This document shows, in pieces, positions 15,466 through 63,594 of a stretch of DNA of 64,000 bases. How positions within the stretch are numbered: position 1 is the stretch's first letter; the number at the start of each line of letters is the position of its first letter. A model generated the notes under the pieces. The model was given only the letters and a program-made list of their open reading frames with translations. It ran no database searches and was not told the origin of the DNA. Made by a program: the position numbers and the translations under genes. Source of the DNA: Candidatus Binataceae bacterium (GTDB lineage: Bacteria; Desulfobacterota; Binatia; Binatales; Binataceae); the NCBI GenBank assembly GCA_050736615.1, contig JBOHWL010000136.1, positions 16,828 to 80,827 of the forward strand, written 5' to 3'.

Positions 15466-15752
15466 TTCTGTTACGCGCCCTCTTCACTGTGCTGCTTCAA
15501 TAACCATAATCATGATTCGCGTGGTATTCCGTCGGATGATGCCCCGCGTCATGCATAGCGGCTACACTTTAGCACGACCGGTGATATGAAAACCAAAAAT
15601 CACCCGGCCAATTACCGTCCTGACGCCAATTGTCGTCGCGCAATAGTCCGGGTGCGAATTAGCGTAAACGCCGCCACTCCCCAGAGTCAATACTGGCGCT
15701 GATCGTGCCGGTAGTTGCGTCTGCACGAGGCGACGTCTATCCCTAATGCTGC

Positions 15753-16649
15753 TTGAAGCAGTGGTTAAAAGAAAACGACCCGGTTTTGTTCATCGATCGC
15801 AAGGGCCGACGCTATCTGAAGGTCTTGCGCCGGGGCCAGAAGATTGAAATCCGGGGAAATATCACGGCCGAAGCCTTATGGGACCTCGAAGAAGGTTCGC
15901 GCGTCAAACTGAGTTCGGGTGAAAGCTACCTGGTGATACGGCCGACCTACGCCGATCTGATTCCGCATTTGCCGCGCGCGGCACAAGTGATCTATCCCAA
16001 AGATACGGGCCCGCTGCTGATATGGGGCGATGTCTATCCCGGCGCGACCGTGATCGAAGGCGGGGCTGGCGCGGGCGCGCTGACGATCGCGCTGCTGCGC
16101 GCCGTTGGCCCCGCGGGGCGCGTGATTTCATATGAGTTGCGCGAGGATTTCGCCGCCGCCGCGCGCCGCAACGTCGCTACTTTTTTCGGTGACGCACCCA
16201 ATTGGACGATTAAGTTGCGCAACCTCTTCGACGGTTTCGATGAGACCGAAGTGGACCGCATGTTTATCGACCTGGCCGAACCGGGACGCGCGCTCGAAGC
16301 CGCCGCGCGGGCGTTGCGGCCGGGCGGCGTGTTCGTCGCCTACGTGCCAACCGCGATACAATTGAAAGACACCGTTGACGCGTTGGCGTTGCGGCCGGAA
16401 TTTGGCGAAATCGACAGCTTCGAAACCTTGATGCGCCATTGGCAGGTCAAAGGCCTCAGCGTGCGTCCGGTCCATCGCATGGTTGCTCATTCCGCGTTCA
16501 TAATTGTCGCACGCCGCCTCGCCTCATCGTCCTCACCGGTTATGATCGGGGCGCCCGAAAGCACCCACGGTGAGGTCAGGCTCGACCATCGGACATCAGG
16601 CGAAGGCCATCTGGACGAGGGCGACGATGACGCGGACGAGGAGCATTAG
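15753..16649 (+). CDS. trmI: tRNA (adenine-N1)-methyltransferase TrmI/Gcd14 family
   Basis: N-terminal beta-domain (GQKIEIRGNITAEALWDLEEGSRVKL), Rossmann VIEGGAGAGALTIALLRAVGPAGRVISYE, DRMFIDLAEP. TTG start as listed (uncertain). Acidic C-terminal tail. Confidence 0.7.
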   Translation: MKQWLKENDPVLFIDRKGRRYLKVLRRGQKIEIRGNITAEALWDLEEGSRVKLSSGESYLVIRPTYADLIPHLPRAAQVIYPKDTGPLLIWGDVYPGATVIEGGAGAGALTIALLRAVGPAGRVISYELREDFAAAARRNVATFFGDAPNWTIKLRNLFDGFDETEVDRMFIDLAEPGRALEAAARALRPGGVFVAYVPTAIQLKDTVDALALRPEFGEIDSFETLMRHWQVKGLSVRPVHRMVAHSAFIIVARRLASSSSPVMIGAPESTHGEVRLDHRTSGEGHLDEGDDDADEEH

Positions 16650-16731
16650 ATGCGCGCGACGCGGCTCGCGTCATGCCAAACGCGCCCGGTTACGAAACAG
16701 TCGAATGGCAAAATAAGCGGCGGAGGTGGTG

Positions 16732-17661
16732 ATGGCTACCACATACAATACGGCGCAAATCGCGGAACTGCTCGAGCGCGTCAGTAATTGGGGTCGCTGG
16801 GGCAGCGAGGATCAAAAAGGCGCGCTGAATTTCATTACGGATGCCAAGCGGACGGCCGCCGCGCGTTTGGTGCAAACCGGCGAAACGGTTTCTTTAGCCC
16901 TGCCACTGCCGACCCATCCCGCACGCGATAATCCCGTGCCGGTGACTCATCTTATGATTCGCTCGGGCCAGATAGGTCATCCGCTCGGCTCCTTTGGATG
17001 CGCCGATTACTTCGCGATCGAGCCGCATGGGCTTGCCACCACCCATCTTGACGCCCTCTGCCATCATTTTTACCGCGGCAAAATGTACAACGGCTTTGAC
17101 GTGTCCGAGGTCGATTTCCAAGGCGCGCACAAATGCGCCATCGAGGTCGCTCGCGACGGTATCATCAGTCGCGGGGTGCTGTTTGATATCCCGAAGAGCA
17201 AACGGGTCGAATGGGTTGAACCCGGCGATGCGATCTACCCAGAGGATCTCGAAGCGGCGGAACGCGAGCAGCGCGCGCGGGTGGGCGAGGGCGATGTGAT
17301 GTTGTTGCGCACCGGGCGTTTTACCTTGCGCCGGCAAAAGGGTGCCGGCGCCATCGCCGGGATGAACATGCCCGGAATGCACGCTTCCTGCCTGCCATGG
17401 CTACATGAGCGGCGTATCGCGATGCTCGTGTCCGACGCGGTAAGCGACGTGCTACCGACCGCCTATGATGCGCCGTTGAAAATGCCGATTCATACGGGAA
17501 CGCTGGTGATGATGGGGGTTCATCTGGTCGACAACGCCGACCTCGACGCGCTTGCCAAAAAATGCGCCCGGCTGGGGCGTTACGATTTTATGTTCGCCCT
17601 GTTGCCGTTGATCCTCGAACGCGGCACGGCTTCGCCCGCCAACCCGGTCGCAATGTTTTGA
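16732..17661 (+). CDS. cyclase-family protein (kynurenine formamidase-like fold)
   Basis: GRWGSEDQKGALN, HLDALCHHFYRGKMYNG, RGVLFDIP, MLLRTG are putative-cyclase (PF04199-like) motifs. ATG at 16732 is 6 nt after GGAGG. The ORF track starts at GTG 16726. Confidence 0.7.
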   Translation: MATTYNTAQIAELLERVSNWGRWGSEDQKGALNFITDAKRTAAARLVQTGETVSLALPLPTHPARDNPVPVTHLMIRSGQIGHPLGSFGCADYFAIEPHGLATTHLDALCHHFYRGKMYNGFDVSEVDFQGAHKCAIEVARDGIISRGVLFDIPKSKRVEWVEPGDAIYPEDLEAAEREQRARVGEGDVMLLRTGRFTLRRQKGAGAIAGMNMPGMHASCLPWLHERRIAMLVSDAVSDVLPTAYDAPLKMPIHTGTLVMMGVHLVDNADLDALAKKCARLGRYDFMFALLPLILERGTASPANPVAMF

Positions 17662-17798
17662 GACGAAAGGCATGTCGCGAGCCGGATGTGAGCCGCTGAG
17701 TAAGTTGGCTGGCTGAGGCACGGTCGTGCGTGTGAATTTGTCAGCCCAGCGTCGCGAGCGATCTCCGTCGTTTCACCGGTCTCAGAGTCTGTGAATTT

Positions 17799-17872
17799 TT
17801 GTCATTCTGAACGGAGTCCGCCGCCAGCTTCGCCGCACAGAGCGGCTCCGCTGGTGGTGTTCGGAATGACAG
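17799..17872. repeat. palindromic MITE/REP-like element, minimal ~74-bp copy
   Basis: Termini TTGTCATTCTGAACGGAG (17799-17816) and TTCGGAATGACAG (17860-17872) are inverted repeats. The interior ccgccgccagcttcgccgcacagagcggctccgctgg is itself near-palindromic. Related copies lie at 2051-2082, 34937-35098 and 60336-60607. Confidence 0.5.
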
Positions 17873-17959
17873 AAAAAAATCTTCGCACACTCTCAGGATG
17901 GCCATCGTGCGATCACCGTCGCTCCATCGTCATTGGAGAGGTAACCTCGCAAGCGCAAG

Positions 17960-18691
17960 ATGGGAATACCGGTAATGGCCAGACAGGATTTCAGCCGGCG
18001 CAGCACCGAGTCGGAAATGATGGATGATGGCAGCGTGACTTTCGAGGCTTTTCGCGACTGCCTGCGTGATCTCGAGATCGTCAATCGCTTCACCCTGGCC
18101 TATCGGCCGACGAGACATTGGTTGAAACGTGTTTTGCGGGATCGGCTCTCGAATAATTGCACTTCGATTCTTGATGTTGGAAGTGGTGGCGGCGGGATGC
18201 TGCGGCGCATCGCGAACTGGGCCGGCAAGAACGGCCGCCGGGTCGAACTTGTCGGCGTGGACCTCAATCCGTGGTCCAAGCGATCGGCCGAAGAGGCCAC
18301 GCCGTCAGATGCATCGATCCGCTTCGAGACCTCGGATATCTTCACATTCGAGCCCGGCAAAATCGACTTCGTCATCAGCTCGCTCTTCACGCATCATCTG
18401 ACCGACAGCGACGTGGTGCGCTTTCTTCGATGGATGGATCAGCACGCGACACGCGGCTGGTTCATAAACGATCTGCACCGTCATTCCGTGCCGGCCTTTG
18501 TAATCAGGCACGCCACGCGCCTTTTGCGCTTCGATCGGATGGTGCGCTACGACGGGCCAGTCTCGGTCGCGCGGGCGTTTACGGCCAAGGACTGGCGGCG
18601 TCTTCTCGCCGCGGCCGGTATACCAGCCGAGCGCACCCGGATCGATTGGTACTTTCCTTTCCGATACTGCGTGACAGGCTGGAAGGCGTAA
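17960..18691 (+). CDS. class I SAM-dependent methyltransferase
   Basis: ILDVGSGGGGML glycine-rich SAM motif, VELVGVDLNP, FDFVISSLFTHHL. Confidence 0.65.
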   Translation: MGIPVMARQDFSRRSTESEMMDDGSVTFEAFRDCLRDLEIVNRFTLAYRPTRHWLKRVLRDRLSNNCTSILDVGSGGGGMLRRIANWAGKNGRRVELVGVDLNPWSKRSAEEATPSDASIRFETSDIFTFEPGKIDFVISSLFTHHLTDSDVVRFLRWMDQHATRGWFINDLHRHSVPAFVIRHATRLLRFDRMVRYDGPVSVARAFTAKDWRRLLAAAGIPAERTRIDWYFPFRYCVTGWKA

Positions 18692-18726
18692 GACCACGGT
18701 GGCGTGATCGCCAGCGCTAACGTCGC

Positions 18727-50042: not shown

Positions 50043-51431
50043 TCAGCTCGCTCCCGATAATGTGCCTGCGGCGGCGGGCGCCCGCCGGTAGGCGTAGCTC
50101 AGGGTCCACAAGATTGTCGCGCTGTAAACAAGTCCGCCGATCGCGACGATAACGGCACCGCTAACGGCGAGCCGCGCTTCACTGGTCGAAAAACCGACAG
50201 CAAGCACGATGAGGCCGGCGTTGAACGCGACGAACACCAGGCGCCGAGCCTGAGTAATTGAAAGCCGCGCCACCGCTATCGCTGGCCATCCCATTGCACC
50301 GCGCGTGCGGGAAACCAAGCCTGGAAAGAGCCGCTGGGACATGCCGATAATGAAGTTACCGATCCAGCCCATCAGGCCAAGCATCCCATAAATAGTGGCA
50401 ATGCGCGCGCCCATCGCGCTCTGCGTTCCGGTCCGCGTCAGCACGATTCCCAGTCCCGCAGCTACCGTCAACCACAGGATTGCCGTGATCATGTGGCGCG
50501 AACTCCAATCCAGCCGCGCGCGGCGAGTCCGCACCATCCGCGCGACTATCAGCGCGTACGCCATCAGCGCGAGCGCAATTATACAGGCCCATGCGGTGAT
50601 GCCGGGGAGACCGGCCAGTAGAGTCACCGCGAGTCCGATAACGCCGAGCGCCAAAGCGTAGATTTGCCACAATGCGGCTTTTGGCAATCGTGTTTCGGGC
50701 AGGATGAAGGCGGGCATCATTCGATACGTAACGGCGCATATGGTTAACGTCACCCATCCCAGCGCGGCGAGATGCGCATGACCGGCCAGATTGGTGATCA
50801 CATCGCCGCCCATGAAGTTCAGAGTTTTGTCGAGTGCCAACGTGAACCCGACACACGCCGCTGCGAACAACATCAGAATAGACAGTGCCATTCCGGTCTC
50901 CGCCACCGCACGCCCGATACGCGACCATAAACACGGCATCAGGTTGGCGGCGAACATTGCGATGCTGATGATCACCACGATTGCGGCGGACCAGGTGCCC
51001 GGCCATATGCCGAGCGCGAAATGGACAATCATGCCGACAGTGCCGAAGACAAAGAGGATCAATTGGAGGAAGGCAATGCGCGGGTAAGGCAGCTCGCGTT
51101 GGGTCAGGGCGGGAACATAGCGATACATCACGCCCATGATCGCCGCGGTAATCCAGCCGAGCGTAAAGGTATGCACCAAGGCCAGAAGATACGGCTGGTA
51201 AAAGTAGGTGACCGCTTCGCCGATCAACAGGGGTGCCGCGATCATTCCGGCGGCGAAAAAAATCGTCGCGACCATCAAGAAATCGACTGAAATGCGCGCG
51301 GCCGGATTTCGCCGCAAAGCGGATTCGAACGCGACTGGCGCGACGTTGTGTCCCGAAGAAACCATCCGATGATTGCCGTTGGCCAGTTTATCGAGTTCGC
51401 CATGATAAAGATCAATCGTGGATAAATTCAA
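50043..51431 (-). CDS. polytopic membrane protein of unknown function (about 12 TM)
   Basis: 462 aa, hydrophobic throughout. No motif I can assign. Convergent with ctaG. Confidence 0.5.
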   Translation of the reverse strand: MNLSTIDLYHGELDKLANGNHRMVSSGHNVAPVAFESALRRNPAARISVDFLMVATIFFAAGMIAAPLLIGEAVTYFYQPYLLALVHTFTLGWITAAIMGVMYRYVPALTQRELPYPRIAFLQLILFVFGTVGMIVHFALGIWPGTWSAAIVVIISIAMFAANLMPCLWSRIGRAVAETGMALSILMLFAAACVGFTLALDKTLNFMGGDVITNLAGHAHLAALGWVTLTICAVTYRMMPAFILPETRLPKAALWQIYALALGVIGLAVTLLAGLPGITAWACIIALALMAYALIVARMVRTRRARLDWSSRHMITAILWLTVAAGLGIVLTRTGTQSAMGARIATIYGMLGLMGWIGNFIIGMSQRLFPGLVSRTRGAMGWPAIAVARLSITQARRLVFVAFNAGLIVLAVGFSTSEARLAVSGAVIVAIGGLVYSATILWTLSYAYRRAPAAAGTLSGAS

Positions 51432-51705: not shown

Positions 51706-52725
51706 ATGCGTCACGCACATGCGCGGATGGTTCTCGACGGCGCGGTGGCGGGTCTGATTGGCGCGTTAGTAATCGCGCTCTGGTTTTTGGTTTTTGATGC
51801 GGCGCGCGGCTTACCGCTGGAAACGCCGGCGCTGCTAGCCGCCGCCTTGCTCCATGGCGCCAGCCCAACCGTGCTGAACCACGCGGCATGGACGCTGGTA
51901 GCGGAATACACGGTGGTGCATTTCGCGGTATTCGCCGGCATTGGCATTGTCGGTGCGTTGTTGATGGCGGCGGCGGAGCGTAACAAGGAACTATTCGGCG
52001 CGCTTTTTGTCTTCGTCGTCGCCTTCGAAATTTTCTTTATCGCCGTGGTGATGCTGGCCGGACCGGCGGCCCGTGCCTCGTTGCCGTGGTGGAAGGTCAT
52101 CATCGGCAATCTGATGGCGACGGCGGCGATGCTGGCGTACTTCTTTTGGCGTCAGCCGCGGCTTGCTCAAAATCTATTGGGCCCGTGGACGGACGTGGTG
52201 GTCGAAGGCATCATCTCGGGGATTCTCGGCGGGGTGATCATCGCGGTGTGGTTCCTCATCGTCGATGCCGCCGCCGGTCAACCGTTTCATACGCCCGCGA
52301 TGCTGGGCGCGGTCATCTTTCAGGCGGTGGGCATTCCGGAGACTGGCACTGTCACGGTTGCCCTAGTGCTAGGATACACCGCCGTGCATTTCTTCGCCTT
52401 CATTTTGTTCGGTATAGCCGCATCGGTGACGATGGCCGCCTCCGAACATGAACCGCTGCTCGCGCTGGGCGTGCTGGTACTGTTCGTATGGTTCGAGTTG
52501 TGCTTCGTCGGCTTCGTGACGTTTCTCGACCAGACGGCGGTCACTCAACTCGGATGGTGGAAGCTGATCGTCGGCAATGTCGCCGCGCTGGCCGCGATCA
52601 TCGCCTATTATGAGCATGGCCATCCGCGTATCGTGCCGCGCATTGCCGAGCGCTGGAATCGGCTGGAGAGCGAAGGTCGGCGGCCGCCGCGTCCGGTCCG
52701 GCGCACAATCCGCCGCGTTGTCTAA
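51706..52725 (+). CDS. membrane protein with internal tandem duplication (2 x ~150 aa, about 4 TM each)
   Basis: First half VLDGAVAGLIGALVIALWFLVFDAARGLPLETPALLAAALL...WWKVIIGNLMATAAMLAYFF. Second half VVEGIISGILGGVIIAVWFLIVDAAAGQPFHTPAMLGAVIF...WWKLIVGNVAALAAIIAYY. Confidence 0.5.
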   Translation: MRHAHARMVLDGAVAGLIGALVIALWFLVFDAARGLPLETPALLAAALLHGASPTVLNHAAWTLVAEYTVVHFAVFAGIGIVGALLMAAAERNKELFGALFVFVVAFEIFFIAVVMLAGPAARASLPWWKVIIGNLMATAAMLAYFFWRQPRLAQNLLGPWTDVVVEGIISGILGGVIIAVWFLIVDAAAGQPFHTPAMLGAVIFQAVGIPETGTVTVALVLGYTAVHFFAFILFGIAASVTMAASEHEPLLALGVLVLFVWFELCFVGFVTFLDQTAVTQLGWWKLIVGNVAALAAIIAYYEHGHPRIVPRIAERWNRLESEGRRPPRPVRRTIRRVV

Positions 52726-53857: not shown

Positions 53858-54316
53858 TTAAGCGGCGGACTTTTTCGCTTGATCATAAGCCGCTTGGATG
53901 CGCCGCAGTTCCTCCCAGCCCAGGTATGAGGTGAAACTGTTCTCGTTGAAGAACAGCACCGGGCCGTTACAGATGAAGATGTAGTCGGTATCTTCCAGCG
54001 CGGTGGTGGCGCCATGCACCATGCCGGTGGCTTCGTAAACGTAATCGCCGGTCTGCAGGATTCCGGTACGCACCTGCAGCTTGCCGCGGATGATGAAGGT
54101 GTGGGAGGCGGTCAGATGTTTATGCGGTGGCGCCACGTAGCCTTTGAGCCAGCGAAACAGCACGGCCCATGTGCCGGATTCAGCGCCGGTCCATAGAATT
54201 TTCATGAAGGCGCGCTCAGGGTCGTCCTGTGAGGGAATCCAATCCATTTCAGACGAGCGCACCAAGGTATCCATCAACTGGCTGTTGAACGGGTTGATAT
54301 CCTGCGGGAGCGCCAT
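53858..54316 (-). CDS. cupin-domain protein
   Basis: PPHKHLTASHTFIIRGKL...GMVHG is a two-motif cupin signature. Confidence 0.6.
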   Translation of the reverse strand: MALPQDINPFNSQLMDTLVRSSEMDWIPSQDDPERAFMKILWTGAESGTWAVLFRWLKGYVAPPHKHLTASHTFIIRGKLQVRTGILQTGDYVYEATGMVHGATTALEDTDYIFICNGPVLFFNENSFTSYLGWEELRRIQAAYDQAKKSAA

Positions 54317-54729
54317 GGCGTTTCTCCTCCTGCCTGTTCCTTAGCGTGAGCCCACCCGCTGATCAATCGAATTCTACCGCAAGTCGTCTCCCGCCGTCCC
54401 GGCGGCATCACAGTCGCCGCCTCGGTCCCTTCCGATATCGCCGACAATCCGGATGCTTGCAATCCGGGGGTGACGGCCCGCCTGAACCGCCTGTTAGAAC
54501 TTGTCCGGATGCTTGCTATAGCACGAAAGGTTTGTCAGCGACAGATAAATGTGACTTAAACATTCCAGATGATGCTTGAATCCTGTTATCGAATACTGTA
54601 CTTCCAGACTTCGCGCGGGCTGCGAGCTTGGCCGCGCAAGCCACCTTATTTGATTCGGTACGAGGCGATCGGTGATTTACAGCTGTTTTGGTTGATTGAT
54701 TTGACAATCCAAGCGCGAGGCGACAGGCG

Positions 54730-56220
54730 ATGAATCAGGTGAACCGGCAGCCGGGCGGCCGCATGTTGCGCAGCCAGACGCTTAAGCTGACCTATGTGTT
54801 TCCGATTGTTCTGCAATGGCGGCAATTAGCCAAGAAGGGCTTTCTGATCCCGGCTGCACTGACCGTCCTGGTTTCAACCTCATTGGGACTGCTCAGCGCT
54901 GGGCCGTTCGATTACTTCGCGTGGGCCTTCGCCTTTTACTGTGCGGTTGGGTTCTTGTACCTGGTCTATCGTCTTTGCGGCAAACGCAAATCATGGCTGG
55001 TGTTGTTGAGCGCAATGGGTTTGGGGGTTTTGTGTTTGTATCCGCCCAATTATTGCGTATGGCATGTGTTGCACGTGTTTTTTGCCAATTTCGTCGGTGG
55101 CATTTTCTTTTCGAAAGGACCACCGGCCGATGTTTTGGGTCAATTCTTCTACAATTTCGTGACTATCGGGCTGGTTGAAGAAGGGACTAAATTTGTCCCG
55201 GTACTGCTCTTCTTCTGGCTCGCCTACCGCTTCTCACCGCCATGGCGGGAGCAAATCGGCGTCTTCGAGCCGCTGGACGGGCTGCTGGTGGGAGCTGCCT
55301 CGGGTGGCGGCTTTGCCCTCTACGAGACCGTCCATCAATACATTCCGAAAACGCTGGCGATGTCGATGCGAGTGGATGCTTTCAACGCGCTCGTAAAAAA
55401 ACTTTTGCCGAGTAATCCGCAGCTTGCGCGCCTGCCGCCGCATCAGCTCGTCGATGTCATAACTGACCAAATCGCGGCCACTTTTTCGATGCAGCAGATT
55501 ATCGACAAGTTTCAGATCAATGGCGCGCACGCGATGCAGGTGCTTATCTATCGCTCCTTGAATGACTTGGCGGGCCATATGGCGTGGGCGGCGTTACTTG
55601 GCTACGCACTTGGCCTTGCGATACTCAAGCCGAAGAAAGGCTGGATTGCCATCCCGATTGCCTATTGCCTGGTTGCGGCGCTCCACGCCGTGTGGGATCT
55701 GGATTCTCCCGCCAACATCACTGCGGTGATTTCGGGCCTGGCTTCCTACTCTCTGCTGGCCGCCGCTATTCTTCAGGCCCGGCAATTGTCGCCCAATCGC
55801 GAGTTCAATTTCGCGACACAAACCCTCGAACGTCCGAAAACTCCGCTGCCACAAAGAGCAAATTCCAGTCAGAGCGCCGCCACTATTAACGCACAACCAG
55901 CCGCCAAGCCGCGAGTTAATTACAACCGCCCCGCGGGCTACGCGCTGGTCCTGGGCGCGCGTTCGATGTCGCTTGAGGTCGGGACCAAAATCAGATTGCA
56001 GGAAATTCCCGGATTAAAAGCGTTTTCTGCCGATATTGTCGCGGAAGTTCGCAACAGCCCCAACGATGTCTCGATTCTCGGGCTCAAGAATCTGTCGACC
56101 ACGAGTTGGAGAGCGTACACGCCTGACGGCCAGCATCGGGAATTAGAGCCCGGTCGTACGCTTCGGCTCGCGCGCGGCGTCGAGATTGATTTCGGCTCGG
56201 TGCGAGGGCAAATCCGATGA
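54730..56220 (+). CDS. PrsW-family intramembrane metalloprotease with C-terminal FHA-like cytoplasmic extension
   Basis: Multi-TM N-terminus with PrsW motifs EExxK (GLVEEGTKF), G-G-F-A-x-x-E (GGGFALYET) and HAxWD (AALHAVWDLD). The C-terminal ~100 aa (GARSMSLEVGTKIRL...STTSWRAYTPDG...LEPGRTLRLARGVEIDFG) has an FHA-like pattern. Confidence 0.65.
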   Translation: MNQVNRQPGGRMLRSQTLKLTYVFPIVLQWRQLAKKGFLIPAALTVLVSTSLGLLSAGPFDYFAWAFAFYCAVGFLYLVYRLCGKRKSWLVLLSAMGLGVLCLYPPNYCVWHVLHVFFANFVGGIFFSKGPPADVLGQFFYNFVTIGLVEEGTKFVPVLLFFWLAYRFSPPWREQIGVFEPLDGLLVGAASGGGFALYETVHQYIPKTLAMSMRVDAFNALVKKLLPSNPQLARLPPHQLVDVITDQIAATFSMQQIIDKFQINGAHAMQVLIYRSLNDLAGHMAWAALLGYALGLAILKPKKGWIAIPIAYCLVAALHAVWDLDSPANITAVISGLASYSLLAAAILQARQLSPNREFNFATQTLERPKTPLPQRANSSQSAATINAQPAAKPRVNYNRPAGYALVLGARSMSLEVGTKIRLQEIPGLKAFSADIVAEVRNSPNDVSILGLKNLSTTSWRAYTPDGQHRELEPGRTLRLARGVEIDFGSVRGQIR

Positions 56221-57482
56221 CGGATTCCGATACCAAGCCGCCGCCAACAGCCGGCGAGACGTCGAATTTTGCTGCTGAAGCTGCGATTGGCAGTGGGGCA
56301 GGGCATATAGATGAGGCTCAAGATCTGGCGGCGGCTCCAAATGAAGCTATCGCTGTTGGCGAGTGGCGGATGGCGGCTCATTCCATCCGTGGCGCCGCGC
56401 ATTTCAAGGCGCAGTTGCCCAACCAGGATGCCGTCCAATGCTGGCCGCCGGATTCAAATGGCAAGCCGCCATTGATCCTTGCGGTTTCCGACGGACATGG
56501 CTCGGCGCGCCATTTCCGCAGCGCACGCGGCGCCGCGCTCGCGGTTGAAGCCGCGATTGCGACTTTGCGCGAATTCAATCAACCATCCATCGGCCAGGAC
56601 CGTGAGCAAATGCAAACCGCGCTGGACGCGATGCCCTCAGACTTGGTTGGGAGATGGCGTGCGGCGGTTGCCGCCGAGCTGGACACTGATCCTCTTGATA
56701 TAGCCGAACTGGCCAAGGTTGAAGCCGCCGAAGGCCAGGCTTCGCGGCAATCGGTGGAGGCCGATCCCGTTCTCGCTTACGGCGCCACGGTTATCGCCAC
56801 GCTGGTGGGCGACGGCTTCATCTTATTTTTGCAGCTCGGCGATGGCGACGTGCTGTGCGTTGACGCCGCGGGCAAGACCAGCCGCCTGGGATTGCGTGAC
56901 CTACGCCTGACCGGCAACTACTCGACTTCGTTATGCCAGGCGAAGGCGCCCGAGTGGATGCGCACGCATCTGATGACGCAAGCGGACGAATGGCCGGCGC
57001 TTATTCTGATGTCCAGTGACGGCTATGCGAATTCGTTTGTTTCTGAAGATGATTTTCTGCAGACCGGCCATGACTATTTCGAGATGATTCGCACGCGCGG
57101 TTTGCGCGCGGTCGCAGCGGAATTGCCCCAAATTCTTGAGCACGCCTCCGAAAACGGCAACGGTGACGACATTTCGCTTGGCATTCTAAGCCGCATGGGA
57201 GAGAACGTTGACGCCTGCGCGACGACGGTGGCCGATCCGCAAATCGCACGTTCACTCGAAGCGCGCTTGAAACGGCCCGCACACAATTGGCGGGTGCTTT
57301 TTGCCCTAATCGTGATGGTAATGGTGCTGACGGGGCTGGCCTTTTTGCGTCCGCGGATCAGCGTGCGAACTCTCGAATGGTGGCATCACCCTCCAAAGAC
57401 AGCGCCAGCAGCCGGCGCGCACCTGTCGCAGAGATTGCCGCCAGGGAATCTTCAAGCGCATTTGGTCATTCCGCAGGCGTAA
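56217..57482 (+). CDS. PP2C-family Ser/Thr protein phosphatase with C-terminal TM anchor
   Basis: Start overlaps the upstream stop (ATGA). PP2C_2-type motifs: NQDAVQ, LAVSDGHGSARH, ATLVGDGFILFLQLGDGD, LILMSSDGYAN. C-terminal helix WRVLFALIVMVMVLTGLAFL. Confidence 0.75.
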   Translation: MTDSDTKPPPTAGETSNFAAEAAIGSGAGHIDEAQDLAAAPNEAIAVGEWRMAAHSIRGAAHFKAQLPNQDAVQCWPPDSNGKPPLILAVSDGHGSARHFRSARGAALAVEAAIATLREFNQPSIGQDREQMQTALDAMPSDLVGRWRAAVAAELDTDPLDIAELAKVEAAEGQASRQSVEADPVLAYGATVIATLVGDGFILFLQLGDGDVLCVDAAGKTSRLGLRDLRLTGNYSTSLCQAKAPEWMRTHLMTQADEWPALILMSSDGYANSFVSEDDFLQTGHDYFEMIRTRGLRAVAAELPQILEHASENGNGDDISLGILSRMGENVDACATTVADPQIARSLEARLKRPAHNWRVLFALIVMVMVLTGLAFLRPRISVRTLEWWHHPPKTAPAAGAHLSQRLPPGNLQAHLVIPQA

Positions 57483-57513
57483 CCAACAACTTTCGCTTGG
57501 TCATCGAATCAGG

Positions 57514-58782
57514 GTGGCGGAGATGGACTGGTCAACGATCAATCGGCATGAGGTGGCGCGCAAATCACTGGCTGGATTGATTGGCGGGCTTTTGGCCTGG
57601 GTGCCGGTCGAGTTATGGTTTGCGGCTTATCCGGACGGGTTGCTGCGTGCGGGTACGAATAGTGCCTCCTTCTATTATCTCGCGGAAATGTTCTTCCCAG
57701 CCTTTGTCGGTTTGCTGATTAACGCGACCGACGTCCAGGATTTCACCAGCGCCCGAGCCAAACGCTTTTTGCTGGTCACTTTTATCGCCTGTTTCGCCCT
57801 CGGGCTGCCCGCCGCCTACTATTCGCAGGCGCTGTTCACCGGCATGACGACTAATGCGCAGACCTTCAGGTCGGAAGGCATCGCCTTTCGCATGTTAAGC
57901 CGCGGCATATCATTTATAGTTTTCGGATTGGTGGCGGGCGCGGGCGTCGGGCTTGCCACCGGCGCGGTCACAAATCTGATCAAAGGCGCGATTGGAGGAG
58001 CTATCGGAGGCTTCTTCGGCGGGCTGCTGTTCGATCCGATCTTCGCGCTGACTTCGATCGGCCCGCTGAGCCGAATAATCACGTCGGGCGAAGAAGGTCT
58101 CCTGATCGGCCTGATGATCGGGCTGGTGCAGGACCTGACCAAGAGTGCGTGGCTGACGGTCGAGGCTGGCCGCTTGCGCAATCGCCAATTCCGCCTCGAG
58201 AAGCCGGTTACCGCACTGGGCCGCGCCGAAGAATGTGATGTCGGCTTATTTGGCGACGCGGGGGTCGAGGCCCGTCATGCCGTGATCGAACGCCAGGGCG
58301 ACGAATTCGTGCTCAACGCCCTCGGCCATCCGGTGACGGTTAACGGCCGCACCGCGCATGGAGCCAGACTGCGCGGCGGCGACCGGATCGGAATTGGTAA
58401 TTACGAGCTCAGTTTCAATTTGCGTGAAGTCGCCGCTCCGGCGCATCGCGGGAACGAAGTGCCAACGCCGGGGCCGATAGCAGCTTACCCGCGTTTCATC
58501 GACGCCAACGGCCGCGAGCTGGCGTTGCGCATCGACGCGAACACCAGGATGGGGCGTTCAAGTGACAACGATATTGTAATTGCCGATAGTTCCGTCTCGC
58601 GCCATCACGCGTCCATTTTCCCGTATGAGGGCGGCTACTTCATCAATGATCAAGAAAGCCAGAACGGCCTTTATTTGAACGGGCGGCGAATTTTTGTTGA
58701 GACAGACGGATCTCCCGGGCACCAGCTCGGCGACGGCGACGTGGTGCGACTCGGCGATGTGCAACTCACCTTCCGGCTCTAG
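57514..58782 (+). CDS. membrane protein with N-terminal 4-5 TM domain (glycine-zipper) and two C-terminal FHA domains
   Basis: FHA1: ALGRAEECDVGLFGDAGVEARHAVIERQGDEFVLNALGHPVTVNG...GDRIGIGNYELSF. FHA2: RMGRSSDNDIVIADSSVSRHHASIFPYEGGYFINDQESQNGLYLNG...GDVVRLGDVQLTF. Confidence 0.75.
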   Translation: MAEMDWSTINRHEVARKSLAGLIGGLLAWVPVELWFAAYPDGLLRAGTNSASFYYLAEMFFPAFVGLLINATDVQDFTSARAKRFLLVTFIACFALGLPAAYYSQALFTGMTTNAQTFRSEGIAFRMLSRGISFIVFGLVAGAGVGLATGAVTNLIKGAIGGAIGGFFGGLLFDPIFALTSIGPLSRIITSGEEGLLIGLMIGLVQDLTKSAWLTVEAGRLRNRQFRLEKPVTALGRAEECDVGLFGDAGVEARHAVIERQGDEFVLNALGHPVTVNGRTAHGARLRGGDRIGIGNYELSFNLREVAAPAHRGNEVPTPGPIAAYPRFIDANGRELALRIDANTRMGRSSDNDIVIADSSVSRHHASIFPYEGGYFINDQESQNGLYLNGRRIFVETDGSPGHQLGDGDVVRLGDVQLTFRL

Positions 58783-58928
58783 GCTTATGCGACGCGAGGG
58801 GGTTCCGCAATGCGAAGCGGAGTCGCATAGATTTAGAATGTTCGCCGACCCACAGCACCATGATCAGCGAGAAAGTTGCGCAGGTTCGCATCATTGCTGA
58901 CTTGCACTAAGTAACGGGGGGAAGCGAG

Positions 58929-60113
58929 TTGAGATTCGCCGGAACAGCAGTCAGTGTTTGTGCGCTAGTCACACTATTGTGCGGCGGCACCGCTGTCTAT
59001 TCGCAAGGGGACTATTTCAGCAGCAACAGTGGCGGCCCCGGGAATAGTACCGGTACGACCGGACGCGGGGATTACTTCAGCAGCAGAGGCACTGATACGC
59101 AAGGTATCCACGGTAACCCTAACTGCCCGCCGCCGGTGATTAACGGCATCACGCCCAAAAACTGGTCGTGCGGAACTGGCAAACAGGCGGTTCAATTGCC
59201 ACCTGTTAATTCCACAAATCGGTCGCAGCGAATACGACGGATGTGGGACAAAAATCCCAGTATCCCGTGCGACGCAAGTAGTCTGCCGCAACCCGGTAAC
59301 ACTGTCGCGAACGCGCAGGACCTCGTAAAGCTTATCTGGCAGCGCTACAACACCGGCAAACCGATTGGCGTATATCGCGTAGTCAATATGTCTACAGCAA
59401 CCTGCCTGATGGTTTTGTCGGGCACGCAACCTTTTACACCTCAATCAACGGGGCCGCTCGAAGATGTTGCGAGTGCACTGGGAATGAATGACGGGTTTCG
59501 TCAAGCAATAATCGAGCACATGGGAAGCGCTGATTTCGCATCCGTCTGTCCGCCCGGCAGCCGCCTCATTCTGGCGGGGCACAGCCTCGGCGGAATGGAA
59601 GCTCAACTGGTCGCGGCCGATCCTCGCACCGCCGCCCTTGGATATCAGCCCATGGCGGTAATCACGTTTGGCTCGCCCAAGGTCGCGCCAGAGGCGATGC
59701 AGACCAATTCGGCCGGGGGTATAACCGGCTTCACTCTCTACCGACGTTTCACAACTATCGGCGATCCGATTCCTTATTCCACGCGAGGTCTTGGAGCGTT
59801 TCAGCCGACTAATCAGATTTATGTGGACGATCGTAGCCCGGCTCAGAAAGCGCAAATCATCGCTTATACCGATGGATTGATTGATACCACTCTCAACACC
59901 CGGCTTGGGCTCCTGGCTTGGATAGCAATGGGTGCGATGGGACCCCACATGGCGTATCCATGTGTACGGATGCTGGCGGATGACTTTGACGCCCTGGGCA
60001 ATCGCATCAGCAGTCCGGGCTCAGGTACGCAACTGATACTTGCCCCCGCACCTGATCAAAAATTCTATTCGGCGCCGTCGCGATTAGGTGTAACGCCCCT
60101 TTCCAAACGCTAG
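58929..60113 (+). CDS. secreted class-3-lipase-like alpha/beta hydrolase
   Basis: Signal peptide MRFAGTAVSVCALVTLLCGGTAVYSQG. TTG start 5-6 nt after a GGGGGGAAG RBS. Nucleophile elbow LILAGHSLGGMEA (GHSLGG). Confidence 0.65.
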   Translation: MRFAGTAVSVCALVTLLCGGTAVYSQGDYFSSNSGGPGNSTGTTGRGDYFSSRGTDTQGIHGNPNCPPPVINGITPKNWSCGTGKQAVQLPPVNSTNRSQRIRRMWDKNPSIPCDASSLPQPGNTVANAQDLVKLIWQRYNTGKPIGVYRVVNMSTATCLMVLSGTQPFTPQSTGPLEDVASALGMNDGFRQAIIEHMGSADFASVCPPGSRLILAGHSLGGMEAQLVAADPRTAALGYQPMAVITFGSPKVAPEAMQTNSAGGITGFTLYRRFTTIGDPIPYSTRGLGAFQPTNQIYVDDRSPAQKAQIIAYTDGLIDTTLNTRLGLLAWIAMGAMGPHMAYPCVRMLADDFDALGNRISSPGSGTQLILAPAPDQKFYSAPSRLGVTPLSKR

Positions 60114-60335
60114 CGGGCTGTTGAAAAATCACAGCCTGCACCCCCTCTCTTTCTCCCCCGCAAAAGGGCGGGAGAGAAGCTCGAGGAAAGCAGTATGTTC
60201 TAACGCAGCTCGCGGACTCGCCTGCTCGGCTCCACTTCGCTCCGCCTGGTGCTTTACGCAGGGTGTCGAGGGCACTGGGTGCAACTTGCGCTAAGAGCCC
60301 TTTTTCAACACCCTGCTAAGGGAGCCTCTGCGCAA

Positions 60336-60607
60336 GTCTTAATCTGTCATTTCGAGCGTGGCTAGCGGAGTCGCGCTGCGCGGCGAAGCGAGCACACCAG
60401 TGGAGCGAAGCGGAACGAGCGGGCGAGTCTGCGAGCCGTGTTCCGGGTAAATTGAGTCCGCGAGCTGTGTATAAAAGCGCGGAAATTTGTTCATTTCCTT
60501 CGGTTTGTCCGGGATTCCTCATTTATTTCGAACGCACCTGCAGACTCGTTCGCTCGCATAGTCTTCGGCTACGCTAATGGCGGGCTCCGTTGGGAATGAC
60601 AAAGGGG
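60336..60607. repeat. palindromic MITE/REP-like element, expanded ~270-bp copy inside a repeat-rich convergent intergenic region
   Basis: Left terminus GTCTTAATCTGTCATTTCGAGC (60336-60357). Right terminus TTGGGAATGACAAAG (60590-60604). Segment 60514-60558 (gattcctcatttatttcgaacgcacctgcagactcgttcgctcg) is ~85% identical to the interior of the 34937-35098 copy. The reverse complement of the left interior (60358-60420) matches the 2051-2082 partial copy. Confidence 0.5.
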
Positions 60608-60672
60608 TATCGACAGAACCGGTGACCAGCCCTCAGCCGCGCGTCCGGCCGGGCGGGCGGCGGCATCGGCAG

Positions 60673-61887
60673 TCATAGGTTCATGTGACTGCGGTTATAG
60701 CCAGGGGTTTGACCAGAGGTCATAACGTTCGGTGCGTTGGGCGGGGTGAAACCCAACTGTGTCACGGCCCAATACGCAAAACTGTTGCTGTTGACAGCGT
60801 TGTTGGTAAGCTCTGGCGTCGGATTGTAGGGAAGTCCCGCATTGTTAACCCGGCTTTCGAGCTGGCTCATCTCCTGCGCCGCTTCGGAGCAGCTTTCGGA
60901 GACCTGGCCGGCAGTTTCTATCTGAGCGCCCTGCCCAAGGGGTAGGGTCTGCAAATTGCGGACACGTGTCGTCAGCGGCCCCCAATTGGGAAAATGCCCG
61001 GTCGGATTGCCTTCGTAACCTGTGGGCTGGAATCCAGGTCCGCTGAGAATCACGACGGTGTGAATTGCGTTCGTGATTCCGACAAACGTTCTCACGCCGA
61101 TAAATTCGAAACCGACCTGCACCTGGCAGCTCGGGGGCGCCACTTGACTTGCCGGGCAATAAAGCGAGACCGCCTGCACCACGCGCTGTCCCGGATTGAC
61201 GAAGTTGGCCGTCGCGACTGAAATGGCGGAGGCCGCGCCGTTCGGACGGCAGGTGATCGGCGGTGTCATCCGGGCGGTGATAAAATTATGAACGAGGCTG
61301 GGCGAACCGCTCTCTATGGCGAAAAAGCCGTTGGCATCCGGCCCGGAGGCTAGCGGCGAGCATTCGATGGCCATACCGGCCGCGTAATCGAATACAGTGA
61401 ATGTCACGACCGGCGCTTCGAAGCCACTGACGACGGAATTGGTGGGGCAAAGCATCGCGGGTTGCTCGTCGCCTCCAGCGTCATTGCCGGCCTCCGCGCC
61501 CCATTGCAGGCTGTCGCGGCTCCAGCTCCAGCCCGAAACATCACGCTTCGGGACCGCACAAGCGATCCGCACATAATCGAGCACGTCCCCGCGGCGAATT
61601 TGCGCGCCGACCAGTGCGCTGCCCTTGGGACAACGCAAAGTCTCGAGTTGGTAGCCCCGGCCGAGCCTCTGTCCGCCAGCCTGTCCTCCCGAAGCAGCCG
61701 TGTCGCGCTCGCCCGGACCGGGCTTGCTCCACATCGGCGTGGAAAGGCCGCCTCTCAGGCCTAAGCCGAAGCCGCCTTGCGCAAAGGCGCTTCCTGCCCC
61801 TATTGCTAGCGCGCCACAACCGACGGCTGTTGCAAGTAGGAGGAGGCCCGCTCGCGCAAACGTTGCGAACCAATTTCCGCCCGCCAT
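60673..61887 (-). CDS. secreted protein of unknown function (Cys-containing repeats)
   Basis: Start reassigned to ATG 61887, 8 nt after GGAGGA. Signal peptide MAGGNWFATFARAGLLLLATAVGCGALAIGAGSAFAQ. Two related Cys-containing segments (RCPKGSALVG...RIACAV / LCPTNSVVSG...AIECSP). Confidence 0.5.
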   Translation of the reverse strand: MAGGNWFATFARAGLLLLATAVGCGALAIGAGSAFAQGGFGLGLRGGLSTPMWSKPGPGERDTAASGGQAGGQRLGRGYQLETLRCPKGSALVGAQIRRGDVLDYVRIACAVPKRDVSGWSWSRDSLQWGAEAGNDAGGDEQPAMLCPTNSVVSGFEAPVVTFTVFDYAAGMAIECSPLASGPDANGFFAIESGSPSLVHNFITARMTPPITCRPNGAASAISVATANFVNPGQRVVQAVSLYCPASQVAPPSCQVQVGFEFIGVRTFVGITNAIHTVVILSGPGFQPTGYEGNPTGHFPNWGPLTTRVRNLQTLPLGQGAQIETAGQVSESCSEAAQEMSQLESRVNNAGLPYNPTPELTNNAVNSNSFAYWAVTQLGFTPPNAPNVMTSGQTPGYNRSHMNL

Positions 61888-62013
61888 TGCTATCCTCCAA
61901 CCGCGGGCCGCAGAACCTCCCAGGGCGAGCCCCGAAGATTTTCCCGAGACCCTCCCATACCCCGACTTCTGTGCCCGCCGCTGCTCGGCGCTCGTCTGCC
62001 GCATGCTTCGCGA

Positions 62014-63594
62014 TCAGCGGGTGCGCTTGTGGTAGTAGCGGGGCGGAGCGGGGTTAGTGGATGAACCGTTGTTGCCGCCCAGTAATCCCGACGCGACACC
62101 GCCAATCACGCCACCGATGATGCCTGCTATCGCGCCGCCCTCAATTCCAGAAATCCCCGAACCTTGCGATTGTACCGGCGTGGGCTGCTGGTACGGATAC
62201 GGCTCATTGCCAGCTTCTTGGGGATACGGGTTGCCAGCTTCCTCAGGCCGATAATAACGGTGAACGTGGTGGCGCACCGGCGAATGGTATTGCCGATTCG
62301 TTATCGGCGCGGGCTGTGGCGACGGCTGGGCTGGTAGCGGCGGCGGTTGATAGATCACCTGTTTGGGTGGATGCTCCCTGATGTATTCCTGATGAGCCAG
62401 TTCCTCCTGCTGGCTCCTCCAGTAACTGTAGCCCGTGGCCGCGACGGCGATGACCACGGCGGCCGCGATCGCCGGAATAATCAGGCGCCGCGCACTTGAT
62501 TTCGCCTTATCCGCGGTTGAATTCGCCGCGGGCGGCCGCACCGGGCGCGTGAGCGATTCGGAGGGGGCTTCTTCTTTGAAAACCCAGGTGCCTTGGTTGA
62601 CTGCCGTGCTTTTCGATTGCATCGGCGTGGTCGCGTCTTGGCCGAGCTCGACAAACGGCTCCGACTGCGGATTAGTGGCGGCGGTTTGACCAACCACAGA
62701 GGTCGACATGGTTTGCAACGGCTGCGTCGAATCGCGGCTCTGAGGTTCAGGGATCGGCGTTTGTACCTGAGCGCCCAGGTCCGCTTTGATCGCTTCAAGC
62801 CGCAGCCTGAATTCGCGCGCGCTCGGGATACGCTGCTCGATTTTGTCCGCCAATGACAGCGCGAGAAGGTCGGATAGCTCCTTGCTGCAATCCGAACGCA
62901 GACTGATTAGGGCGGGAAAATCGAACGGCACCGGGATGCGGCCGGTGAGCGCGTGATGGAGCGTCGCGCCGAGCGAATATAAATCCGAGCGCGCCTCGAC
63001 CATGCCGCCGTACTGTTCTTTAGGCGCGTAGCCGGGCGTGCCAAACGTCGTCATCGTCGCGTTCTGGAAAAAGCGCGCGATACCGAAATCAATCAGCCTG
63101 ACCTTGCCCGTCGGCGTCACCATTACGTTGGCCGGCTTCATGTCGCGATAAATGATTGGCGGCGTCAAACCGTGCAGGTATTCCAGCGTCGCGAGGATCT
63201 GCAGTGCGATATCGATTACCTCGGCTTGCGGCATCCCGGCGCGAGCGGCGCTCATCAGGTCCTGAAACGTGCCGCCCTCGACGTACTCCATCACGAGATA
63301 ATGATTCTGCCGCTCGCTGAATTTGTCGAAAATCTGGATAATATGCTCGTCCTTGAGCCGGGCGAGCATGTCGGCTTCTCGTTGAAAGCCAAGAATCGCC
63401 TGCTGTTGCTCCTCGGGATTGGCGAAGTTGTCGATCATCTCCGCCACAGCGCATAACCTGCTATTCAGGCGCAGATCCTCGGCGAGATAGACCACCTTCA
63501 TCCCGCCGCCGCCAAGTTTCCTGCCGAGCCGATAACGCCCGCTCAGGACCGTGGGAGAACCAAGAGTTGACGTGGTTTGAGGGTCGGTTGCCAT
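62014..63594 (-). CDS. Hanks-type Ser/Thr protein kinase with TM helix and C-terminal glycine-zipper tail
   Basis: GGGGMKVVYLA (Gly loop with Lys), IIYRDMKPANV (catalytic loop), LIDFGIARF (DFG), GTPGYAPKE (activation segment). Then the TM helix IIPAIAAAVVIAVAATGY, a Pro/Gln-rich region and a GIxGG repeat tail. Confidence 0.85.
   Translation of the reverse strand: MATDPQTTSTLGSPTVLSGRYRLGRKLGGGGMKVVYLAEDLRLNSRLCAVAEMIDNFANPEEQQQAILGFQREADMLARLKDEHIIQIFDKFSERQNHYLVMEYVEGGTFQDLMSAARAGMPQAEVIDIALQILATLEYLHGLTPPIIYRDMKPANVMVTPTGKVRLIDFGIARFFQNATMTTFGTPGYAPKEQYGGMVEARSDLYSLGATLHHALTGRIPVPFDFPALISLRSDCSKELSDLLALSLADKIEQRIPSAREFRLRLEAIKADLGAQVQTPIPEPQSRDSTQPLQTMSTSVVGQTAATNPQSEPFVELGQDATTPMQSKSTAVNQGTWVFKEEAPSESLTRPVRPPAANSTADKAKSSARRLIIPAIAAAVVIAVAATGYSYWRSQQEELAHQEYIREHPPKQVIYQPPPLPAQPSPQPAPITNRQYHSPVRHHVHRYYRPEEAGNPYPQEAGNEPYPYQQPTPVQSQGSGISGIEGGAIAGIIGGVIGGVASGLLGGNNGSSTNPAPPRYYHKRTR

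Follow-up and report, generated by a model that had tools for sequence, protein, structure and literature searches.

A candidate Thr-phosphorylation gene set beside a PrsW-type intramembrane protease with a divergent FHA-fold tail in Candidatus Binataceae

Introduction

The control of PrsW-type intramembrane proteases is poorly understood. In this study, we analyzed a 64,000-nucleotide stretch of DNA (the window; contig JBOHWL010000136.1, positions 16,828 to 80,827) from Candidatus Binataceae, a soil bacterium. In this window, the gene of a PrsW-family protease (g1) lies beside genes for a PP2C phosphatase (g2), a membrane protein with two FHA domains (g3), and a Hanks-type Ser/Thr kinase (g6), together with the genes of two secreted proteins, a lipase (g4) and a lectin-like protein (g5). 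The locus raises the question of whether g1, g2, g3, and g6 act together and, if so, on what. With moderate confidence, we lean towards the reading that these four products form one signaling device, in which a Thr-phosphorylation switch is wired to an intramembrane protease.

A preliminary description of the window, made from the letters alone, had placed six genes here, and the listing of open reading frames (ORFs) confirmed their coordinates. The genes and the tail domain of g1 are as follows; TM denotes transmembrane.

54730-56220, + strand: g1, PrsW protease with a C-terminal tail (PrsW-tail), 496 aa
55921-56217, + strand: tail of g1 (aa 398-496), a divergent domain with a predicted FHA fold
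56217-57482, + strand: g2, PP2C_2 phosphatase, anchored by a TM helix at its C-terminus, 421 aa
57514-58782, + strand: g3, Gly-rich membrane protein with two FHA domains and four TM helices, 422 aa
58929-60113, + strand: g4, class-3 lipase with a Sec signal, 394 aa, at a variable position (the slot)
60673-62004, - strand: g5, secreted protein with a predicted jacalin-like domain, 443-aa ORF, probable start at Met40 (nt 61887), which gives 404 aa
62014-63594, - strand: g6, Hanks-type Ser/Thr kinase, 526 aa

The stop codon of g1 and the ATG of g2 share 4 bp, and g6-g5 are convergent with g1-g4. The PrsW, PP2C, FHA, Lipase_3, and Pkinase assignments made earlier were all supported by the Pfam hidden Markov models; none of the products reached the level of a named NCBIfam equivalog. 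The membrane anchors and signal peptides agreed with a hydropathy scan, and the motifs quoted for the protease and the lipase (EExxK, GGGFALYE, HAVWD, and GHSLGG) were present in the translations. The NCBI proteins from metagenome assembly include 100% identical matches to g1, g3, and g5, the g1 match being a partial protein of Candidatus Binataceae.

Recurrence of the four genes in other genomes

The gene neighborhoods of related loci, numbered from L001, were compared with the window. In L001, whose PrsW is 68% identical to g1, the genes for PrsW-tail, PP2C_2, the TM protein with two FHA domains (TM-2xFHA), and a 511-aa slot protein are accompanied by a convergent kinase and a g5 ortholog, with the order of the kinase and g5 swapped relative to the window. 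The gene order of L091 is that of the window, and its products are 92% (tail), 75% (PP2C), 82% (g3), 87% (kinase), and 74% (g5) identical to those described here. In L012 and L013, where the identity to g1 falls to 47-50%, PrsW-tail, TM-2xFHA, and the convergent kinase are kept. Since this linkage recurs in other genomes, the adjacency of g1, g2, g3, and g6 is not due to chance. Synteny elsewhere was the comparison by which the preliminary description had proposed to tell a linked gene set from a coincidence, and the PrsW, PP2C, FHA protein, and kinase genes were found to be syntenic.

A coincidental adjacency of unrelated genes would suit the lipase, which is not conserved with the module, and the distant homologs of g5, which occur in unrelated contexts. 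However, all four of g1, g2, g3, and g6 have linked counterparts in L001 and L091, and some of them do in L012 and L013. PrsW-tail is accompanied by PP2C_2 in 27 of the 30 loci described below, and g1 and g2 overlap. Because of these synteny data, coincidence is refuted for the core four genes, and as an explanation of the locus it is hardly credible.

The PrsW protease and its FHA-fold tail

g1 matched the Pfam family PrsW-protease (PF13367) with an E-value of 1e-22 and 81.1 bits against a cut-off of 23.5. The catalytic residues E151, K154, E199, H283, and H319 were invariant across 24 homologs, and E150 was invariant or nearly so in the same alignment; the motifs VEEGTKF, GGGFALYE, and LHAVWD could be read in the translation. 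The NCBIfam PrsW equivalog NF033739 was not reached (18.7 bits, cut-off 225). PrsW of the Binataceae type carries an insert of ~70 aa between the second and third catalytic motifs (g1 aa ~205-275, 55340-55560), which the alignment showed to be absent or much shorter in the relatives that are encoded beside a vWA gene (vWA-type loci, see below).

A strongly conserved block, ...IPGL...VAEVxxNPxDPxxLGLKNLSxxxW...IDFGSxxGxI, makes up the C-terminal ~99 residues of g1. When 19 tail sequences were compared with Pfam at E<=10, none matched any family, PF00498 included; a PDB profile search with the g1 tail returned chance-level matches only. When the tail was aligned by hhalign with a profile of 100 canonical FHA domains taken from the collected loci, only its last 30 residues aligned, with a probability of 58%. 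Because the sequence searches failed and a fold search settled the question, the tail is identified by its modeled structure as a predicted FHA beta-sandwich. The FHA-like tail of the preliminary description therefore stands as a fold and not as a PF00498 match. When the family consensus was compared with the order of strands in the model, which is not a residue-level superposition, Gly was the only canonical FHA binding residue kept. IPGL, NPxDP, KNLSxxxW, and DFGS are family-specific motifs located in the loops that bind the peptide in canonical FHA domains.

The tail of g1 is placed in the cytoplasm because the same domain ends soluble kinases that have no preceding TM helix. An exhaustive profile search returned 1,253 cluster representatives of the tail family at E<=1e-3, of which 582 also reached E<=1e-10; the domain often occurs in tandem. 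In 106 full-length matches, the tail was fused to PrsW in 32 and to vWA in 11. The domain was also found in kinases and multi-TM proteins, and scattered fusions joined it to aspartyl and trypsin-like proteases, WD40, TPR, HEAT, and RDD. The tail is a promiscuous adaptor domain, unnamed in current libraries, and it defines a large, divergent family of predicted FHA fold that current profile libraries miss.

The phosphatase and the double-FHA protein

g2 matched PP2C_2 (PF13672) with an E-value of 5.9e-36 and 124 bits against 24. Its metal-binding motifs DGHG, GDGD, SDG, and GDD were invariant among three orthologs. A TM helix was located at aa 359-377 by the hydropathy scan, and this C-terminal anchor is kept in L001, L091, and L003. 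g2 is 44-47% identical to the PP2Cs of vWA-type PrsW loci. In those PP2Cs (L003 13921-15432; L037 13591-15267), the TM helix that follows the catalytic domain is itself followed by a region of ~145 aa, which is weakly tail-like (E 2e-4 in L037). If this region is extracytoplasmic, an FHA-fold domain there would be unable to read phosphorylation.

g3 matched FHA (PF00498) with an E-value of 8e-28 in two stretches. It has four TM helices according to the hydropathy scan, and the FHA domains are cytoplasmic:

~nt 58159-58443, + strand: FHA_a, partly degenerate, with GR and His kept and without Ser and Asn
~nt 58507-58773, + strand: FHA_b, canonical, with GR, SRHH, and NG

Two canonical FHA domains had been ascribed to g3; FHA_b is one, and FHA_a, which has lost Ser and Asn, is not. 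L001 and L091 have g3 orthologs, 71-82% identical, at the corresponding place in the gene order, and with >747 matches the g3 family is an abundant one. Homology between the membrane domain of g3 and the multi-TM tail proteins was considered and rejected, as the phmmer E-values of 1e-3 to 1e-6 came from Gly-rich TM repeats and the similarity is one of layout only.

A kinase family with a relocated lysine

g6 matched Pkinase with an E-value of 4.6e-38 and 131 bits, and its best solved relative is PknB. Two regions were delimited:

~nt 62725-63534, - strand: kinase domain of g6
nt 62428-62484, - strand: TM helix of g6 (aa 371-389, hydropathy scan)

Beyond the TM helix lie an extracytoplasmic Pro-rich region and a C-terminal Gly-zipper stretch. 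The catalytic loop YRDMKPAN, the DFG motif, and the alphaC-Glu segment FQREAD align to PknB. The beta3 catalytic Lys of PknB (VAIK) aligns to Ala in g6 (CAVAEM), and the Gly-rich loop of g6 carries a Lys instead (GGGGMKVVY). A lysine in the Gly-rich loop is the arrangement of eukaryotic WNK kinases. We compared g6 with seven relatives, in a set that includes the window, L001, L012, L013, L091, L092, and L093. The Gly-loop Lys (GGGGMKxVY) and the missing beta3 Lys ([CT]A[VL]A[EA]M) were found in all eight family members. The lysine placement of g6 thus appears to be WNK-like, and kinase activity is predicted. A non-exhaustive literature search found no report of such an arrangement in bacteria, and the relocation is a biochemical curiosity of this family.

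Each examined member of this kinase family has a TM-2xFHA protein as its partner. A D-x-T-x-P-[LV] motif is conserved just after the kinase domain. Many FHA domains prefer a hydrophobic residue at the third position after the phosphothreonine (pT+3). As the motif fits this preference, it is the best candidate for a phospho-site. Weak Zn-ribbon matches were seen in distant relatives of g6.

The combination of g2, g3, and g6 can also be read as a system of growth and division control, in which they are the counterparts of PstP, FhaB (FipA), and PknB, and the PrsW and secreted proteins are adjacent for unrelated reasons. The topology is the same: the PP2C and the kinase each have a TM helix, and the FHA protein is a membrane protein. 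FhaB_Rv0019c (FhaB/FipA) was the best NCBIfam model for g3, PknB is the best solved relative of g6, and in L092 a distant g3/kinase pair lies ~4 kb from ftsZ and ftsA. However, g3 reached 72 bits against the FhaB cut-off of 125, and g6, which has no PASTA domain, reached 210 bits against the cut-off of 450 of the NCBIfam PASTA kinase model. There are no rodA, pbpA, or fts genes in the window module, and division control leaves the co-occurrence of PrsW-tail with PP2C_2 across phyla unexplained. We regard it as improbable.

The same division of labor is known from Fha1-PpkA-PppA of the type VI secretion system (T6SS) and from actinobacterial FhaA/FhaB-PstP-PknA/B, where the kinase writes, the PP2C erases, and the FHA domain reads; g2 and g3 are membrane-anchored like PstP and FhaB. 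The window differs in that no T6SS or cell-wall genes are adjacent and in that g3 falls below the cut-offs of both FhaB and TagH (TIGR03354, 71 bits, cut-off 120). The proposed output, an intramembrane protease, differs as well.

Related PrsW loci across phyla

A census was made of 80 loci from a scan of species-representative genomes together with loci fetched earlier. PrsW-tail was found in 30 of these, from Acidobacteriota, Microcystis, Chamaesiphon, Nostoc, Limnocylindrales, and Binataceae. PP2C_2 was encoded in 27 of the 30, and vWA and PP2C_2 were both present in 26 (Acidobacteriota, cyanobacteria, and Chloroflexota). Two further products are encoded in most of the vWA-type loci. One is a second tail-bearing ORF, a Pkinase (kinase-tail); the other is a single-pass membrane protein whose cytoplasmic N-domain is conserved and whose outside domain varies. 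The vWA proteins have an intact DxSxS motif. In Acidobacteriota, the gene order is PrsW-tail, single-pass protein, vWA, PP2C, and kinase-tail. An independent metagenome scan that started from PP2C again yielded these five genes on all contigs of sufficient length; it returned only vWA-type loci and no close relatives from Binataceae.

In cyanobacteria (L014 of Microcystis, 11230-16118; L057, 7048-12206), the gene of a multi-TM tail protein and, behind it, that of a single-pass protein form pairs that are repeated, and the outside domains of these single-pass proteins include Gly-zipper, DUF1036, and others. The repetition looks like local diversification.

The TerY-P triad of Anantharaman, Iyer & Aravind 2012, as given in PMC10542128, consists of the vWA protein TerY, a PP2C phosphatase, and a Ser/Thr kinase. 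g2 resembles this system as a PF13672 PP2C that is kin to the PP2Cs encoded between the vWA and kinase genes of related PrsW loci. The vWA-type relatives share with it the order vWA, PP2C, kinase and a kinase with an extra C-terminal domain. In contrast, there is no vWA among the six products of the window, and g6 belongs to another kinase family, is TM-anchored, and has the WNK-like lysine. g6 is also without the C-terminal zinc ribbon/OB fold, and the C-terminus of the relatives' kinases is the predicted divergent FHA fold instead. A further difference is that PrsW and a single-pass membrane protein are added in the related module. PADLOC-DB v2.0.0 contained no match at E<=1e-3 for g2 or for the vWA or PP2C of L003.

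These comparisons suggest that the window is TerY-P-like by descent of its PP2C and is not itself a member of TerY-P. The module as a whole probably descends from a TerY-P-like vWA-PP2C-kinase triad joined to PrsW, and not from a T6SS triad or one of actinobacterial division. The window appears to be a Binataceae variant, in which a 4-TM double-FHA protein and a WNK-like kinase replace the vWA and the tail-kinase. It looks like a merger of an FHA-adaptor/kinase pair with the PrsW-tail/PP2C_2 half of the vWA-type module. The five-gene module spans Acidobacteriota, cyanobacteria, Chloroflexota, and Binataceae, and would extend the TerY-P concept to a membrane-protease output.

The cyanobacterial FHA-PrsW fusions that Pfam recognizes were considered as members of the same system and set aside; they match in the PrsW core only, and PP2C, vWA, and kinase neighbors were absent in the census. 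In L004, the one locus of this type that was examined, the FHA domain appears to be at the N-terminus, and a CHAT-FHA protein and a PP2C are encoded a few kb away. From these mostly cyanobacterial proteins, g1 differs in that its predicted FHA fold is C-terminal and divergent and lies in a kinase/phosphatase neighborhood. The Pfam-positive fusions appear to be a different subfamily.

The preliminary description knew of no coupling of an FHA-fused PrsW with kinase and phosphatase genes. The fusion as such has been noted before: PrsW fused to FHA, PilZ, cNMP-binding, or Zn-ribbon domains was put forward as a probable "signaling peptidase" (Zhang et al. 2012, PMC3482391). g1 is alike in having an intact catalytic core fused to a cytoplasmic domain of predicted FHA fold, and the same inference, that cleavage is coupled to a signal, would apply to it. 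The difference is that the earlier report gives the fusion one sentence, in which operon context is absent (PMC3482391). The combination with PP2C and kinase was absent from the literature searched: full-text searches for PrsW with FHA/PP2C/kinase, for PrsW with vWA, and for an intramembrane protease with FHA and PP2C returned no paper, the original description of TerY-P lying outside their coverage. What is new here is a combination of known kinds, namely a TerY-P-like switch, a PrsW signaling peptidase, and an FHA adaptor, built on an unnamed family of predicted FHA fold.

A proposed phosphorylation switch for PrsW

To our knowledge, no control of PrsW by Ser/Thr phosphorylation has been described. 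The conserved link of PrsW to a kinase, a phosphatase, and FHA domains suggests phosphorylation-dependent docking as a direct mechanism. We infer the interactions, the direction of control, and the substrate as follows. g6 would sense an outside signal through its extracytoplasmic Pro-rich and Gly-zipper region and would phosphorylate Thr sites, the best candidate being its own D-x-T-x-P-[LV] motif. The phospho-site would be bound by FHA_b of the g3 adaptor, and the mark would be erased by the membrane-anchored g2. The tail of g1 may dock into this complex together with g3, either while it is phosphorylated or through a constant partner in it. The phosphorylation state would then decide whether PrsW gains access to its putative substrate and cleaves it; this would be either an exported protein or one that spans the membrane once. 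The preliminary description had proposed that phosphorylation gates PrsW, or else the release or activation of g4 and g5, and either may hold.

Candidate substrates differ among the loci. In vWA-type loci, the single-pass partner may be cleaved. In the window, the candidates would be g2 or g6, both single-pass proteins with the N-terminus inside (N-in), or the secreted g4 and g5. g5 and the lipase would be lineage-specific accessories, possibly outputs or substrates of the switch.

Several observations weigh against a single four-gene device. Distant homologs of g3 and g6 form a pair with a small membrane ORF and without PrsW or PP2C, and the kinase-FHA pair can work independently. L012 and L013 have no PP2C next to PrsW and also lack the slot gene and g5. 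In L002, PrsW-tail stands without an adjacent kinase or PP2C, with FHA proteins only, a few kb off. The four-gene set is not obligatory. The canonical Arg, Ser, His, and Asn are apparently absent from the g1 tail, as judged from the sequence reading and the failure of hhalign, and a tail that has lost these residues may not read phosphorylation at all. Within the window, no substrate candidate with anti-sigma topology was found, and the view past the kinase is limited to ~400 bp, where the window ends with no ORF inside.

The neighborhoods of L012 and L013 bear on the nature of the substrate. In both loci, a TPR-CHAT protease is encoded directly upstream of PrsW, and an extracytoplasmic function (ECF) sigma factor and a zf-HC2 anti-sigma protein are encoded ~1.5 kb downstream of the kinase:

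L012, 539-3442: TPR-CHAT region; 10211-12524: ECF-anti-sigma region
L013, 7042-9744: TPR-CHAT region; 16408-18715: ECF-anti-sigma region

The anti-sigma protein has one TM helix and a periplasmic Trypsin_2 (trypsin-like) domain, with an RsiW-like topology. It is of a canonical type of PrsW substrate and lies beside the module, and it is the candidate substrate in L012 and L013. A single-TM FHA protein is also encoded in L013 (15275-16231).

These genes point to a more specific form of the proposed switch, with a named substrate class, in which the module serves the envelope-stress response. g1 would act as a conventional site-1 protease on an anti-sigma factor whose gene lies elsewhere in this genome, the cleavage would only be tuned by g2, g3, and g6, and the lipase and lectin-like genes would be unrelated neighbors. 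In favor are the ECF sigma and zf-HC2 anti-sigma genes beside the L012 and L013 kinases, the founding PrsW, whose substrate RsiW is an anti-sigma factor (PMC3482391), and the N-in topology, which the single-pass partners of the vWA-type loci share. However, these partners have no anti-sigma Pfam domain, and the window, L001, and L091 have no sigma or anti-sigma gene within the module or next to it. g1 shares the protease family and catalytic motifs of Bacillus subtilis PrsW in PrsW-RsiW-SigW, and the L012/L013 pair recalls its sigma/anti-sigma partners, but g1 differs in the ~70-aa insert and the predicted FHA-fold tail and lies far under the PrsW equivalog cut-off (18.7 against 225 bits). We hold the envelope-stress version to be possible and rather doubtful.

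The variable secreted proteins

g4 matched Lipase_3 (PF01764) with an E-value of 2.8e-7 and 31 bits against a cut-off of 22, and only the core 70-100 residues were covered. GHSLGG and GDPIP are in register with fungal class-3 lipases, e.g. 3ngm. Both g4 and g5 begin with signal-like helices in the hydropathy scan. No homolog of g4 was found in the 90 loci screened, in L091-L120, or in the slot of L001 and L091. The slot is occupied by a secreted protein of 426 aa in L091 (2910-4190) and of 511 aa in L001 (6401-7936). These two proteins share a signal peptide and a Cys-rich N-domain of ~200 aa (E 1e-100), and their C-termini are wholly different. The C-terminus of the L091 protein has HEIGHH and is a zincin (Zn_peptidase, 28.6 bits against a cut-off of 23.2). 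That of the L001 protein gave a weak match to "Papain fold toxin 1, glutamine deamidase", which is below the cut-off (E 0.009). The common N-domain had no Pfam match and no relative in one metagenome scan. g4 shares with it a 9-residue motif, GD[YV]FSSNxG, at the mature N-terminus (E 0.12); homology of the g4 N-terminus to this domain was not accepted on such a motif alone. On three examples, the slot behaves like a polymorphic-enzyme locus, and this variability hints that the output may be the deployment of hydrolytic effectors.

For g5, the start at Met40 provides a signal peptide and is supported by the homologs. The NCBI annotation of 353 aa begins at Met91 and omits the signal peptide conserved in homologs; it is probably too short. 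The secreted protein of 404 aa described earlier is therefore retained with Met40 as its start, and its "internal Cys repeats" correspond to predicted jacalin-like beta-prism repeats. No Pfam or NCBIfam family was found for g5. Its AlphaFold2 (AF2) model is confident for aa 91-291 only, and this conserved, Cys-rich region (aa ~91-291, nt 61132-61734) led Foldseek to many jacalin-related lectins (E 1e-4 to 1e-3, probability 1.0, target-normalized TM-score 0.55-0.66), with a sequence identity of 5-15%. The model indicates a jacalin-like beta-prism I of three-fold symmetry, and sugar binding is a prediction from it.

In the alignment of the g5 family, the N-domain is constant, and the C-termini of ~150 aa differ between clades. 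The C-terminal domain of g5 had no Pfam match at E<=1, and its AF2 model is of low confidence. An LRAT/NlpC-like H...NSNSF motif in this domain was an unsupported impression and was dropped. Orthologs of g5 adjoin the kinase in L001 and L091. In the distant family, the jacalin-like domain is kept, the C-terminal domain is swapped, and the neighborhoods are unrelated (L007-L010). The two secreted genes appear to be accessories of one Binataceae subclade. As for the effector-like cargo that had been suggested for this locus, the lipase is not conserved; the variable C-domains of the slot proteins and the variable C-terminus of g5 lend the suggestion indirect support.

This variability is the point of departure for reading the locus as a conflict system, in which a TerY-P-like sensor of phage or competitors causes PrsW to release or activate polymorphic secreted toxins. 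In this genome, g4 and the lectin-X protein would be these toxins, a part that the outside domains of the single-pass proteins, with their variability, would play in relatives. The L091 and L001 slot proteins, with the same N-domain and differing C-termini, and the lipase in the window would fit such a system. The constant lectin-like domain and variable C-termini of the g5 family and the cyanobacterial repeats of multi-TM tail/single-pass pairs are of the same kind. TPR-CHAT proteases lie near PrsW in L012 and L013, and a CHAT-FHA protein is encoded in L004. It has been suggested that PrsW is a peptidase that releases toxins (PMC3482391), and TerY-P-like triads act in phage defense (PMC10542128).

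However, the polymorphism comes from three loci only, and the likeness of g4 to the slot N-domain is limited to the nine residues mentioned. The PADLOC models miss the PP2C, vWA, PrsW, and FHA proteins, and only generic kinase models (PD-T4-6, mad6) matched. No convincing ORF for an immunity gene follows g4: in the gap between g4 and g5 (60114-60672, 560 bp), no ORF exceeds 68 aa and neither an Rfam family nor a clear terminator was found, and at the equivalent position in L001 and L091 there is hardly any gap and no intergenic room for one. The flanks are housekeeping genes and not a defense island. The signal peptides of g4 and g5 are ordinary Sec signals, for which PrsW would not be needed in export. 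The L091/L001 slot and the g5 family resemble polymorphic toxins in their constant N-region and variable C-terminus, but no immunity gene, RHS/filamentous repeats, or dedicated secretion-system marker was found, the examples number three, and the window lipase lacks the common N-domain except for the short motif. A conflict system is therefore unlikely in our judgment. Both this and the envelope-stress version overlap the general switch described above and are not exclusive of it.

A broader form of the proposed switch would treat the loci of all phyla as one undescribed system, in which a TerY-P-like switch and PrsW are tied together by the tail and the output is the proteolytic release or activation of polymorphic effectors. 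We put this forward tentatively, as something that may well prove wrong. The effectors would be the lipase here, the zinc peptidase and papain-like toxin in the sister loci, and the variable ectodomains of single-pass proteins elsewhere, an identification that we hold just as tentatively. If true, this would be a new signal-gated, protease-based system of effector deployment or conflict. As these findings lie in uncultured lineages, heterologous reconstitution would be needed.

Surroundings of the module

The module is bounded upstream of g1 by one intergenic region:

54317-54729, no strand: 414 bp, module boundary, with housekeeping genes beyond it in the ORF map

The genes upstream of this boundary encode a ChrR-type cupin, an SDR, CtaG, and cytochrome oxidase, all housekeeping. 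No consensus sigma-70 promoter was found within 54317-54729, and the sites returned by a promoter and terminator scan were no commoner than in shuffled sequence. No Rfam family was found in 54-64 kb. The G+C content is uniform.

The ChrR-type cupin (53858-54316, - strand; Cupin_7, 8e-26) lies just upstream of the module and stands alone, without an anti-sigma domain. ChrR itself is an anti-sigma factor whose sensor half is the cupin domain. No link between this cupin gene and the module was found. Between the cytochrome-oxidase/CtaG cluster and the SDR gene lie two large multi-TM ORFs without a Pfam match, one of 462 aa (50043-51431, - strand) and one of 339 aa (51706-52725, + strand). The 339-aa product resembles an internal duplication of a 4-TM unit.

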